Shown one piece after another: positions 17,294-58,164 of a stretch of 64,000 nt of DNA; positions within the stretch are counted from its first letter, which is position 1, and the number at the start of each line of letters is the position of its first letter. The notes beneath the pieces were generated by a model, which made no database searches, was not told where the DNA came from, and saw only the letters and a program-made list of their open reading frames with translations. The position numbers and the translations under genes are program-made. Origin of the DNA: Planctomycetota bacterium (GTDB taxonomy: Bacteria > Planctomycetota > UBA1135 > UBA2386). The stretch covers positions 5,440,001 to 5,504,000 of the forward strand of contig OZ245838.1 of assembly GCA_965228735.1 (NCBI GenBank), in the 5' to 3' direction.

Positions 17294-20275
17294 ATGAGGT
17301 TGCTCGGCTCCCGGTCCTGGACCGCCCTCGCGGCCCTCGTCCTGGTCGCGCCGGCGATCGCGCAGAACCCGATCGCCGAACGGCTCGATCCACGAACGGA
17401 TCCCGAGTGGCGCAGCGAAGCGCTCGCGGCGGCGGCGGGCGAGCGGTTGCAGTCGACCCTCACGGATGCGCTGGGACGGGCGGCGGACGAGGCGGCGACC
17501 CTGCCGGCAGTGCGAGAATGGGCCCGGCCGTTGCGCGGCGCCGTCGTCCGCACCAAGGTCAAGCTGTTGTCGGCGGATGTCGACGGCGCGACGTTGACGA
17601 CCCGCGCGCGGATCGAGGCCTTCGGGCAGCGCGCATCGGGAGCGGGGGCGCCGCCCCCATTGCAGTCGCCCGCCACGCAATCGCCACTCGTGCAGTCGGT
17701 CGCGAACTGGCGCGTCACGTGGTCGATCGGCGAGAACGGCGAGCTCGCGCTGGAATCGATCGCGGCGGTTGGCAGCGAGCGGGCCGCCGCCGAACGCGTC
17801 TGGTTCGCCGAGGTGACGGCTGCGGTGCTCGGCCCCGAGCTGGCAGGGAAGCCGGAGCTGCGCTTCGGCGGCAGCTACTGGGCGGGCCGCGTGGATCACG
17901 TCGGTGAGTCCGCGCGGATGGGGCACCAGGGCGTGGCGGTCGGCGACGTCGATGGCGACGGTCGCGAGGACGTCTACGTCGGGATGCCGAACGGTCTGCC
18001 CAACCTGCTGCTGCGGCGACGCGCCGACGGCACGTTCGAGGACATCGCGGCGGCTGCCGGCGTCGCGTTCCTCGACGACACCAAGGGTGTGCTGCTGCTC
18101 GACCTCGACGGCGACGGCGACGACGATCTCGTCCTGGCGATCGGCCCGTTCCTGCTGCTCTGCGATGGCGACGGCGCGGGTCGCTTCCGCCCGGCGCATC
18201 GGCTGCAGGCGCCGACGGGTGGCGCGTTCTATCACGTCACTGCTGTCGACTTCGATCGCGACGGCGACCTCGACCTCTACGGCTGCCGCTACGTCGAGGA
18301 GGCCTACGCCGAGAGCGTGCCGTTGCCGTATCACGCCGCGGAGAACGGGCCTCGCAACCTGCTGTTCCGCAACGACGGCGAAGGCGGCTTCACGGACGTG
18401 ACCGCGGCGGTCGGCCTCGACGCCAACAACACGCGCTTCAGCACGGCGGCGGCGTGGGCCGACTACGACGACGACGGCGACGTGGACCTCTACGTCAGCA
18501 ACGACTTCGGCCGCAACAATCTCTATCGCAATGACGACGGGCGCTTCGTGGATGTCGCAGCCGACGCCGGGGTCGAGGATCAGGGTGCCGGCATGGGGGT
18601 CGCGTTCGCCGACGTCGACGCGGACGGCGACCTCGATCTCTACGTGACCAACATGTTCTCGTCGGCGGGTCACCGCATCGGTTCGCTGCCGGCGTTCCAG
18701 GCCGGCATGAACGCGGCGGAACGCGGCGCGCTGCTGGGCCTGAGCCGCGGCAACTCGCTGTTCCTCAACGCGGGTGACGGCACGTTCGTGCGGGCGCCGG
18801 ACGCCGGTGTGCGCATGGGGCGGTGGGGCTGGGGCGCGCGCTTCGTCGACCTCGACACCGACGGGCTGCCCGACATCGTCGCGCCCAACGGCTTCCTCAC
18901 GGGGCGGCCCGAGGCGGCGGACTGTTGAAGCCTGTTCTGGCGGCGCGTGGCGTCGCAGACCCCATCGACGGTCGAGGTGCTGCAGGCGGGCGTTGCCGCG
19001 CCGGCGACGCTCGACGAGTACCTGCGCGGTTGGGCTGCGCTCGCTGAGCTGATCGAGCGCGACGTGTCATGGAGCGGGCACGAGCGGAACTGCGCGTTCT
19101 CGAATCGCGGTGATGGCACCTTCGCGGACGTCTCCGCGATCTCGGGTCTCGACTTCGACGACGACGGGCGCGCGTGCGTCGCGCTCGACCTCGACCAGGA
19201 CGGCGACCTCGACCTGCTGTTCAAGAACCGCTCGGGCCCGCAGCTGCGGGTGCTCGCGAACGAACAATTCGATGACCGGTCCGCGCTCGCCGTCCGGCTC
19301 GTCGACCCGACGTGCAAGAACCGCGACGCGATCGGCGCGCGGGTCACGGTGCGCGCTGGCGATCACGGACTGGTGCGCTTTCTCGTGGCCGGCGACGGTT
19401 ACCTCTCGCAGTCGTCACGGTGGTTGCACTTCGGTTCGGTCGACGCGACCTCGGGGTTCGAGCTCACGGTGCGTTGGCCCGATGGCGAATCCGAACGGAT
19501 CACCAAGCAGCAGTTCGACGCGGACCGTCAGTTGGCGCGGCTCACGATCGTGCGCGGCCGCAGCGCGACGTGGAGCAGTGCCGCGACCCGCACGCCCTTG
19601 CCGACGACCTCGGGAGCTGCCAAGCCCGCCCCGCCCGATCGCGAGGCGATCGTGTTACGGAACCCGCTGCCGCTCTCGCCGACGCTGCAGCGCGCCGCGT
19701 TCCGCGGTCCGCCGCGGCGACCCGCGCTCCTTGGCCTGTGGGCGATGGGCAACGCCGAGAGCGAGCGGGCGATCACGGCGTTCGCGGGTTCGCAGGCTGC
19801 GCTGGAAACCGTTGCCGTCGACGTCGTGCTGCTCGGCCTGCACGACGGTGCTGAGCAGGCCGCGGCCGCGCGCCGGTTCGTCGAGCTCGCGGGCGACCGC
19901 ACGCCGGGCATGCGGCAGCGGCCGGCGAGTGCGGCGATGCGCGAGTGCATCGACGCGCTCGTGACCGCGATCGTGGGGCCGAGCGATGCCGCGACGGAGC
20001 CTGCGACGTATCTGCTCGTCGATGGGCAGGGGCGCGCTCAGGTCCTCTATCGCGCGGCGCCGACCGTCGCCGAGCTGCGCTACGACGTCGCGCGATTCGG
20101 TGGTGCGCAGGTCGATCCGACGCGCCGCAGCCGCCGATCCGGTCGCTGGGCGTTCGCCGTGCCGCGTGCTCTCGGTCCGCTCGTGCGGGACCTTGCCGCG
20201 CGCGGGCTGCGGCGGGACGCCGCGTTCTATCAGCAGCTCGATGCGGCCCGCCGCGGCGACCAGCCGCCCAAGTAG
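17294..20275 (+). CDS. CRTAC1/ASPIC-UnbV-like FG-GAP protein with in-frame UGA (candidate selenocysteine at residue 545) and a degenerate C-terminal redoxin-like domain
   Basis: ORFs 17294-18928 and 18947-20275 are in the same frame, separated only by TGA 18926-18928. Readthrough gives ...NGFLTGRPEAADC-U-SLFWRRVASQ...SWSGHERNCAFSNRGDGTFADVS, a continuous CRTAC1-type architecture. A hairpin follows the UGA. Confidence 0.7.
18936..18959 (+). promoter_or_regulatory. Candidate bacterial SECIS hairpin
   Basis: UCU(G)GCGGCGC-GUG-GCGUCGC-AGA: 10 pairs with one bulged G. The G-containing loop begins 18 nt after the UGA. Confidence 0.55.
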
Positions 20276-20361
20276 GTTCCCCTTCCCGACGGGGTTGTCG
20301 CCAGTCGCCGGCCCCAGCAAGATCGTCTTCCCTGCCCGCCGCTCTCGCCCCGCCGTCACCC

Positions 20362-56815: not shown

Positions 56816-56967
56816 CGGGGTACTGTAACCGCAACCCCGGCCGCCGGTTCGGGTAAGGCGGACGGGCCGCGAGATCCGGGGAGAACGGACCTTACGCCGG
56901 TAACGATTCCGGGTCAGAGTCTTCCGTCCGACGGCCGGTTCCTCCGGCCAGCCTCTCAGGAGACCCC

Positions 56968-58164
56968 ATGAAGCGACCTGTCCTGCTCGCCGTGCTCGCA
57001 AGCGCCAGTCTGGCCATCGCGCAGCGCGCCCCACTGCCCGGCCTCCCGGTCGTGCCACCGCCCGTTTCCCACCCCGCCCTGATCGCGCAGCCGTTGATCG
57101 ACAGCGGCGGCAGCCAGATGTCGGCGCCCGCCGCCCCGAAGGCTCCCAAGGCCAAGGGCAACGGCAAGAAGGCCCCGCAGAAGAAGGGCCGCAGCAAGCC
57201 CCTGATCGACCCCGACACCGTCGGCGTCAAGATCAAGGGCCGCGCGCTCAAGGCCGCGGTCAAGAAGGTCGCGAAGCTGCCGTGGCACAGCAGCAAGGAG
57301 TTCGAGGACATGCGCGCGGAGTCGGCCGCGACCGGCAAGCCGATCCTGTTCCTGCAGGCGCTCGGCGACATCGACGGCTTTGCTTGAAGCGCGCTGCAGA
57401 GCCTGCGGGGCGTGACCCTGCCGAACAAGAAGGTGATGCAGATGCTCGAGAACGAGTTCGTTCTCGGCGCCGCCAACATCGAACGGGCCGAGTTCGTCGG
57501 CACTTCGCACGGCTACAAGACGACCGACTGCGCCGTCGGCACGACCAACGGCGCTGGTGGTCGTAACGTGCAGCTGTGCGTGCTCGCCGCGGACAGCACC
57601 GTGCTGCACGTGCTGCCGGGCTTCTGGCACGCCGAGGACCTGATCGACGAGCTCGAGTTCAGCAAGGAGCTCAACGCGCTCTACCTCGACCCCGACCGTT
57701 CGCGCGCCGAGAAGCAGCGCCTGTTCCAGGCGATGCACCGGAGCAAGATCCGTCGCATCTCGGCCGAGACGCGCGCCCGCAGCCGGTGGCAGGGCTTCGA
57801 CGTCTGGGCCGAGGTCGCCCGCGCGCAGCGTGAGGGCGGCAGCGATACCGTGCGCCTCGACGAGGAGGGCAAGCCCGTGCGCACGGCCGGCGGTCAGATC
57901 GCGATCCGGCCGGTGTGCGAGCTCGTGCACCACCGCATGGCGCAGCGGCCGTTCCTCGCGTTCGACGACTTCGACATCGAGGAGTTCGTCGACTACGGCC
58001 GGCCCTACTACGACAACAACGCCCGGCACGACGACGGCAAGACGTTCCGTGCCGCCGAGCGCAACCAGAAGAAGCGCATGCGCGCGGAGCAGAAGCAGCG
58101 TGAGCTGGAGCTTCGCGAGCAGAAGCGCCAGGCGCGCGGCGGCAAGGCCGCGCGTCGCTGGTAG
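56968..58164 (+). CDS. Exported thioredoxin-fold (SELENON-like) protein with in-frame UGA (candidate selenocysteine at residue 140)
   Basis: AGGAG ribosome-binding site and signal peptide. ORFs 56968-57387 and 57412-58164 are in frame across TGA 57385-57387. Readthrough LPW...ESAATGKPILFLQALGDIDGFA-U-SALQSLRGVTLPNKKVMQMLENEFV places the UGA at the redox position of a Trx fold. Confidence 0.75.
57405..57421 (+). promoter_or_regulatory. Candidate bacterial SECIS hairpin
   Basis: GCGGGG-CGUGA-CCCUGC, loop starting 23 nt after the UGA. An alternative stem (57394-57408) is also possible. Confidence 0.45.

Follow-up and report, generated by a model that had tools for sequence, protein, structure and literature searches.

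Are the two in-frame TGA codons that interrupt long coding regions in a stretch of planctomycete DNA read as selenocysteine (Sec, U), and which signal marks them? The stretch, hereafter the window, comprises 64,000 nt (positions 5,440,001–5,504,000 of the forward strand of contig OZ245838.1, assembly GCA_965228735.1) of a Planctomycetota genome of 7.19 Mb with a GC content of 69% (G000 in our genome set), and all positions below refer to the window unless they are marked as genome coordinates (contig C1). The original prediction had proposed that both codons are recoded by a lineage-specific selenocysteine insertion sequence (SECIS) with a shared U-UGA-AGC context and a hairpin apex of GCGUG. 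We found that both TGAs are conserved and very probably read as Sec through the standard SelB and tRNA-Sec pathway and an ordinary SECIS, with the U immediately upstream of the codon (position −1) likely tuning the insertion. The new point is this U at −1; the SECIS itself is ordinary.

The TGA at 57385–57387 (+ strand) lies within a gene at 56968–58164 (+; gene 2), which, when TGA is read as U, encodes a 398-aa protein with a signal-peptide-like N-terminus and a predicted thioredoxin fold, in which Sec140 stands in the context LGDIDGFA-U-SALQSLRG. The segments on both sides of the TGA are coding, with dicodon scores of 28 upstream and 22 downstream. Gene 2 was found in 22 of the 41 genomes of the same order that were searched as relatives, and the aligned codon in 29 rows was TGA in 26, TGA one codon later in one and TGC in two, where the conservation of TGA spanned protein identities of 31–61%. 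One relative (G018) encodes a Cys paralogue without the hairpin and with GCG as the preceding codon, whereas its TGA-bearing neighbour retains hairpin and −1 U alike. Among the best 120 database matches to gene 2, 110 were fragments beginning downstream of the TGA, and the 10 full-length homologues carried Cys (7) or Ser (3) at the site. The other TGA, at 18926–18928 (+), lies within a gene at 17294–20275 (+; gene 1) that with TGA read as U encodes a 993-aa CRTAC1-like protein with FG-GAP repeats and an ASPIC/UnbV domain, again with a signal-peptide-like N-terminus, where Sec545 stands in the context AADC-U-SLFWRRV and the flanking coding segments have dicodon scores of 21 and 13. TGA was kept in 16 of the 22 gene-1 homologous loci over protein identities of 35–72%; the remainder had D, E or G or were poorly aligned. 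We are highly confident that gene 1 and gene 2 are real selenoprotein genes.

The genome carries the corresponding machinery. Its tRNA-Sec scored 76.6 bits against a cut-off of 47, selA, selB and selD were all above curated cut-offs, SelB has its usual winged-helix domain, selD contains an in-frame TGA of its own, and selA was found in all 41 of the genomes of the order that were searched. The tRNA-Sec gene (genome coordinates 2825088–2825186, − strand) has a U·U mismatch in the anticodon stem, which was also seen in nine other members compared of the source genome's bacterial family (hereafter the family, the other families of the same order being its sister families). In the same stem, the tRNA-Sec pair U31-A39 of the family is replaced by C-G in most sister families, with no tie to the −1 U.

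It is extremely unlikely that the TGAs are instead true stops, nonsense mutations, errors or products of a genome-wide reassignment to Trp or Gly. TGA occupies the same codon across families over 31–72% identity, and public contigs from four runs of three studies, perhaps including the source sample, cover both sites with zero differing letters. Genome-wide reassignment (genetic codes 4 and 25), in which TGA is unused as a stop and release factor 2 (RF2) is lost, was not found: UGA is not reassigned because RF2 (prfB, genome coordinate ~4337360, − strand) is present with its programmed +1 frameshift site (AGGAG...CTT TGA C), and 2160 of the 3295 gene-like frames end in TGA. The CTT-TGA of prfB is also the Sec context of one of the gene families described below (L108). 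The single UCA tRNA in the genome scores as tRNA-Sec, and in a context-blind BLAST search within the genome, paralogues had a Cys aligned with the stop at 14 of 469 TGA codons, compared with 0 of 481 TAG and 0 of 62 TAA codons. Two observations are on the side of true stops, namely the few Cys homologues of gene 1 and the absence of the TGA enrichment that the original prediction had expected among same-frame open reading frame (ORF) pairs split by a stop, since such pairs were found for 114 of 3055 TGA, 64 of 1449 TAG and 18 of 215 TAA codons, and removing ATG restarts (51, 22 and 3 pairs, respectively) still gave no enrichment over TAG. This test is too blunt because adjacent genes in the same frame dominate the pairs.

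A large unannotated selenoproteome had also been anticipated, and 52 Sec codons in 49 genes were in total predicted, which is probably a floor. The 51 candidate stretches taken were chosen partly by a −1 U, a hairpin or a redox motif; from the final set of 52 codons we distinguish a validated subset of 28 sites and a blind subset of 25 that came from the context-blind BLAST search, with selD and the window sites left out. In 33 genes (35 codons) the TGA falls inside a Pfam or NCBIfam model; among them are those for SelD, AhpC, two Bcp, a TlpA-like protein, two AhpD, two deiodinase-like proteins, MsrA, SelW, Grx, ArsC, rhodanese, HMA, DsbD, VPGUxxT and a MetE-like protein. The other 16 genes (17 codons), including both window genes, have no model across the TGA, and 13 of them are backed by TGA-bearing paralogues or relatives; for families L097, L108, L089 and L120, TGA was present in 19/20, 14/14, 4/5 and 1/6 of the aligned relatives' rows, respectively. 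The model-less gene at genome coordinate 2546238 has the motif, the hairpin and similar TGA-bearing rows among the gene-2 relatives, and the tandem 2123/2372 gene and the gene at 4643014 are backed by motif and hairpin only. With a wider candidate net, the extra TGA matches were no commoner than TAG decoys, and one gene (604375, with an HMA domain) was kept on its hidden Markov model match. Two candidates were rejected, 4654131 as the pyrE stop followed by the next gene and 1527002 for having no family and a weak downstream region.

As originally noted, both window sites read TTGAAGC (18925–18931 and 57384–57390) and both are followed by GC-rich hairpins with loops 18 and 23 nt past the UGA, respectively. 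Hairpin 1 at 18940–18956 (+) is GCGGCGC-GTG-GCGTCGC with the loop GUG (or CGUGG) and a free energy of −10.2 kcal/mol, and hairpin 2 at 57405–57421 (+) is GCGGGG-CGTGA-CCCTGC with the loop CGUGA and −8.9 kcal/mol. Both are within the limits of the bacterial SECIS consensus given in PMC13188914, which comprise a loop of 3–9 nt with G at loop position 1–2, a stem of 4–16 bp, a spacing of 16–37 nt and a free energy of −7.5 kcal/mol or lower, and both have compensatory changes among relatives. In gene 2, 97% of the stem cells in 25 sequences were paired and 10 cells had changed on both sides, as high as in none of 500 shuffles and no slid control; in the relatives of gene 1, 83% of the cells were paired and 12 had changed on both sides, again as high as in 0 of 500 shuffles, where in each family only 2 of the 6 pairs change on both sides and the sequences are related. 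The folding energies of the 65 nt compared with shuffled sequences were modest at site 2 (z = −2.25) and unremarkable at site 1 (z = 0.13).

We then defined a strict hairpin as a loop N(0–1)G[G/U] on a stem of at least 5 bp with a free energy of −5 kcal/mol or lower. Hairpins had been proposed to be rarer at ordinary stops than at Sec codons, and this held: the strict hairpin was found at 21 of the 28 validated Sec sites compared with 166 of 1792 TGA stops (9%), with similar backgrounds at 914 TAG stops (11%) and 1500 Cys codons (10%), and at 43 of the 52 sites of the final set. The loose published rule is only weakly specific because it is met by 36% of ordinary stops. Loops at Sec sites followed N(0–1)G[G/U]N (GGUC, CGUGA, AGUUC, CGUGC and others) with the loop G 19–33 nt past the UGA. 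Taken with their sequences, the window hairpins are canonical bacterial SECIS elements and the predicted target of SelB.

That the SECIS forms a class of its own, defined by UGA-AGC and a GCGUG apex, is by contrast very unlikely. Both window sites and the gene at 2546238 do have all three features in common, and CGTG occurs 14–34 nt downstream at 21 of the 52 Sec sites, but AGC follows at only 5 of the 52 sites, TTGAAGC is found at 4 and GCGTG at 5, and neither AGC nor GCGTG was found at any of the 26 other validated sites. The loops fit the published N(0–1)G[G/U] model and the 16–37 nt spacing, the gene-2 relatives also have GAGUU or CGGUC loops, and the SelB here is of the usual type. AGC is a Ser codon conserved in the gene-1 and gene-2 families, and TTGAAGC was present in the window at chance level, with 5 matches against 3.15 expected and 16 of 100 shuffles reaching 5. 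A lineage-specific GCGUG class of SECIS is thus largely refuted, and the AGC of the proposed U-UGA-AGC context is not general. Three features do exceed chance, namely how well the TGA is conserved, how the stems covary and the U at −1, and the lineage-patterned signal is this U, noted in the original prediction as part of the 7-mer, rather than the hairpin apex.

At site 1 the U at 18925 (+) ends a TGT codon, which accounts for 12.6% of the Cys codons in the genome, and at site 2 the U at 57384 (+) ends a GCT codon, which accounts for 2.9% of the Ala codons and is kept before the gene-2 TGA in 10 relatives. NNU codons are rare in this genome. Counting only −1 codons with a choice, that is, those having synonymous alternatives to a third-position U, 18 of 19 in the blind set ended in U; five TGA/TGA rows were left out of this count, namely three identical repeats with GAG and two TTC rows with ATG after the TGA, and keeping the two TTC rows gives 18 of 21. 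At the 28 validated sites, U was found at −1 in 21 of 22 cases against 1.5 expected, and no other position between −8 and +11 exceeded 5. The final set gave 38 of 43 (88%) against ~3 expected from codon usage, a value biased upward because the candidates were chosen partly by −1 U. Ordinary TGA stops had U at −1 in 111 of 1702 cases (6.5%), with 119–127 expected from codon usage. By hand tally, relatives within the family had U at −1 at 60 of 65 TGA sites in six gene families. The selD genes of the family all had GGT-TGA (22/22, with 3.8 expected), and one gene family had CTT (1% of the Leu codons in the source genome) or GGT before the TGA in 12 of 12 cases.

The signal also appeared outside the planctomycetes. 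Among the selD matches listed with a GC content at third codon positions (GC3) of at least 0.6, GGT preceded the site in 47 of 81 Sec-type genes (from GTDB) and in 17 of 98 Cys-type genes (from metagenomes), with GGT making up ~10% of the Gly codons in the gene bodies; the p value of 2e-8 overstates this difference because each scan ended at 120 rows, the taxa of the Sec and Cys sets are not the same and related sequences do not count as independent. Acidobacteriota were the clearest among the named rows listed at this GC3, with GGT in 12 of 14 by hand count. In selD genes of AT-rich genomes, among the matches listed, GGC stood before the TGA in 16 of 36 (25% in the gene body) and GGA in 2 of 36 (30% in the gene body), which suggests a pattern of non-preferred codons rather than of U as such.

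Several results weigh against this account of the two genes and of the U. Sec at both UGAs is a prediction from sequence, related genomes are not independent samples, and 9 of the 52 predicted Sec sites have no strict hairpin. In gene 1, the residue at the site among 116 aligned full-length homologues was Ser in 43, Ala in 26, Asp in 15, Gly in 11, Asn in 7, Glu in 7, Cys in 4, Met in 2 and Gln in 1, and a redox role is not evident given how rarely Cys occupies the position. With regard to the U, the other families of the order had it at −1 in only 3 of 31 cases by hand tally, selD in the sister families in 3 of 14, and Sec-type MsrA elsewhere in the phylum in 0 of 16 (parsing covered 16 of the 17 Sec loci and 24 of the 30 Cys loci, and one Cys row was spurious). 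Among the selD matches listed with a GC3 below 0.6 there was no excess of GGT (11/36 Sec-type and 10/16 Cys-type), and gene-1 homologues outside the family had TTG before the TGA in 11 of 12 cases, which the wobble idea considered below leaves without an explanation. In Escherichia coli fdhF, the UGA is preceded by a Val codon, which is GUC. We concluded that the −1 U signal is real, patchy and extreme in the family. Where U is impossible, one gene family had GAA or CAA in 12 of its 19 TGA rows, in many cases with a U closing the −2 codon, and these cases together with TTG would point to rare or weak codons more generally.

How might the U act? SelB-GTP with Sec-tRNA would bind the G(U/G) loop 19–24 nt downstream and deliver Sec at the UGA, while the NNU codon in the P site would be read by a G34 tRNA through a wobble pair; a slow or loosely paired P-site codon would then let a larger fraction of ribosomes take up the tethered Sec-tRNA, and the benefit of a fixed U would be greatest for a family with ~50 Sec codons. 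The case for a wobble-paired or slow P-site codon helping the SelB complex, which is our inference, builds on the rarity of NNU codons and the lack of A34 tRNAs, as G34 tRNAs are present and, apart from Arg(ACG), the sole A34 call is doubtful. We consider an action at the level of the ribosome about as likely as not.

A related possibility, which we regard as unlikely, is that Sec is inserted but the U serves to weaken termination by RF2 at the UGA. P-site codons affect stop decoding and termination in human cells, as reported in PMC9841425, and the prfB of this genome has the classic weak stop CUU-UGA-C. This explanation is not favoured because ordinary TGA stops do not avoid a preceding U (111 found where 119–127 were expected) and because PMC4513850 describes RF2 as competing only weakly against Sec in E. 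coli. It is similarly improbable that the U acts on the RNA, by keeping the UGA unpaired or by pairing with A37 of the tRNA-Sec loop. The anticodon loop CUUCAAA was identical in all 29 tRNA-Sec genes compared, and changing U to C in silico raised the pairing of N-UGA at 17 of 37 sites; however, it lowered the pairing at 9 and the mean change was just 0.05, and sister families have the same loop and no −1 U bias. No feature of tRNA-Sec unique to the family was found in this comparison. Inside the ribosome, moreover, the −1 base is already engaged by the P-site tRNA. An effect exerted through the P-site codon on acceptance of the Sec-tRNA is our preferred explanation of the U.

If both codons are read as Sec, gene 2 would yield a full-length exported thioredoxin-fold protein with Sec where thioredoxins carry their nucleophilic Cys. 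The model (mean predicted local distance difference test score, pLDDT, 74.5) has a thioredoxin-like core at residues 96–240; a fold search (VIA) returned mainly thioredoxin-like chains, with a best Z of 10.3 and a root-mean-square deviation of 2.5 over 109 residues, and the Foldseek match reached an E value of 6e-3 only. In this predicted model, U140 opens the helix that follows the first core strand, with the surrounding loop below a pLDDT of 50. Gene 2 had no Pfam match and no NCBIfam family at E 0.01, and a UxxC or CxxC redox pair was not found at its site, where the motif is U-S-A-L and no second Cys is nearby.

Gene 1 would yield an exported CRTAC1-like beta-propeller whose Sec begins a helix within an insert. 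A beta-propeller followed by ASPIC/UnbV was found in Pfam (PF13517 and PF07593), and the model matched murine CRTAC1 (PDB 9etn; E 3.7e-26, TM score 0.68, 20% identity), where U545 opens a helix in a propeller insert; no NCBIfam family was found at E 0.01. A CU dipeptide is present at the site in the source genome and in one relative (G002). Even so, U545 may serve as a nucleophile at the surface or bind a metal instead of belonging to a classic redox pair; with Cys in 4 of the 116 homologues, the expected Cys at the position of a Sec is seen only weakly for gene 1. With mostly non-Cys residues at the site, such a gene tends to escape searches for Cys/TGA pairs. Both window proteins are outside the 119 families of Table 1 in PMC13188914, to which the full BSepDB family list may add, and no report of either family was found in the literature by a search without most subscription papers; gene 1 and gene 2 are likely two uncatalogued selenoprotein families, judged by their sequences.

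Upstream of gene 1, at 12394–17286 (+), an FG-GAP protein and a di-haem oxidoreductase (PF06537) are encoded close-spaced on the same strand, and possibly gene 1 and these genes constitute one exported redox unit. Further along the window, a TAG at 61472 lies inside a methyltransferase domain spanned by Pfam (60851–61942, +); it has no SECIS, is also present in the public contigs and is likely a nonsense mutation.

Other members of the selenoproteome were also of note (genome coordinates). A cobalamin-independent methionine synthase-like protein (PF01717) at 1761498–1762646 has the motif FM-U-AT and is outside the same 119-family table; this MetE-like gene had TGA with a SECIS in 7 genomes and Cys in 8 others parsed, and the strict hairpin was present in 7 of 7 TGA-type genes and absent from 7 of 8 Cys-type genes. 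Four paralogues with TGA at 3484699, 4855623, 6929513 and 7087946 have the motif HPLG-x-T-U-(N/G)NG, all with ACT before the TGA; they had no Pfam or NCBIfam match and are probably a further Sec family of thioredoxin-like proteins. Three proteins with FG-GAP repeats, whose TGAs are at 406817, 3065085 and 5872224, have a U-C dipeptide and a common AGUUC SECIS loop and make up a second Sec family of the FG-GAP type, separate from that of gene 1. Three genes (L073, L078 and L115/L116) have two Sec codons each, in tandem HMA-like domains or in a VPGUxxT/MsrA fusion (NF041383), and two L097 relatives have a second TGA three or five codons later.

What would these observations mean? Tentatively, and at somewhat less than an even chance, a synonymous P-site codon may be a second, 5' determinant of Sec decoding in bacteria, which has become nearly fixed in the NNU form within a single family of planctomycetes, appears again and independently among GC-rich Acidobacteriota and Chloroflexota, lifts Sec insertion above the E. 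coli ceiling and is usable for selenoprotein prediction and recombinant production. According to PMC4513850, insertion in E. coli is limited to 30–40% for unknown reasons; a one-base synonymous signal at dozens of independent sites would be a direct and cheap handle on Sec yield. If true, a planctomycete family with NNU at −1 carries ~50 mostly exported selenoproteins while respiring oxygen. The −1 base would also be an unused feature for prediction, because published predictors use downstream sequence, deep-Sep being described as trained on the nucleotides after the TGA. Public databases split such genes, as with the gene-2 fragments above. A bias of U at −1 before Sec UGA codons was not found described in the literature, in a search without most subscription papers.

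We finally compared these genes and this genome with known systems. The predicted fold and Sec position of gene 2 resemble those of Thioredoxin_7, DsbD-gamma and DsbH-type selenoproteins (VPGUxxT, NF041383; Trx7/PDZ, NF041199), from which it differs in its longer loop, its lone U without a resolving Cys (FA-U-SAL), its C-terminal extension and its lack of a Pfam or NCBIfam match. Gene 1 has the domains and fold of the CRTAC1-type proteins with FG-GAP and ASPIC-UnbV (PF13517, PF07593, 9etn) and differs in its conserved TGA within a helical insert. The 49 genes predicted here are similar in number to the 46–63 selenoprotein genes of the top ten genomes of BSepDB (PMC13326102, Table 2, in which no Planctomycetota appear), a comparison that is not like for like because 16 of the genes counted here have no family model across the TGA. 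By this number the source genome would stand among the largest bacterial selenoproteomes published, and yet it is apparently aerobic: selenoprotein-rich genomes are predominantly anaerobic according to a published review, whereas this genome has a match to cytochrome c oxidase subunit I (644 bits, narrowly below the cut-off), the sequence of which suggests aerobic respiration. With the E. coli fdhF paradigm of SelB-dependent Sec insertion at an in-frame SECIS, the genome shares selA, selB, selC and selD and a hairpin in the coding region; it differs in that its own FdhA is of the Cys type with no internal stop, and in the near-fixed U at −1, which lies outside the published model.

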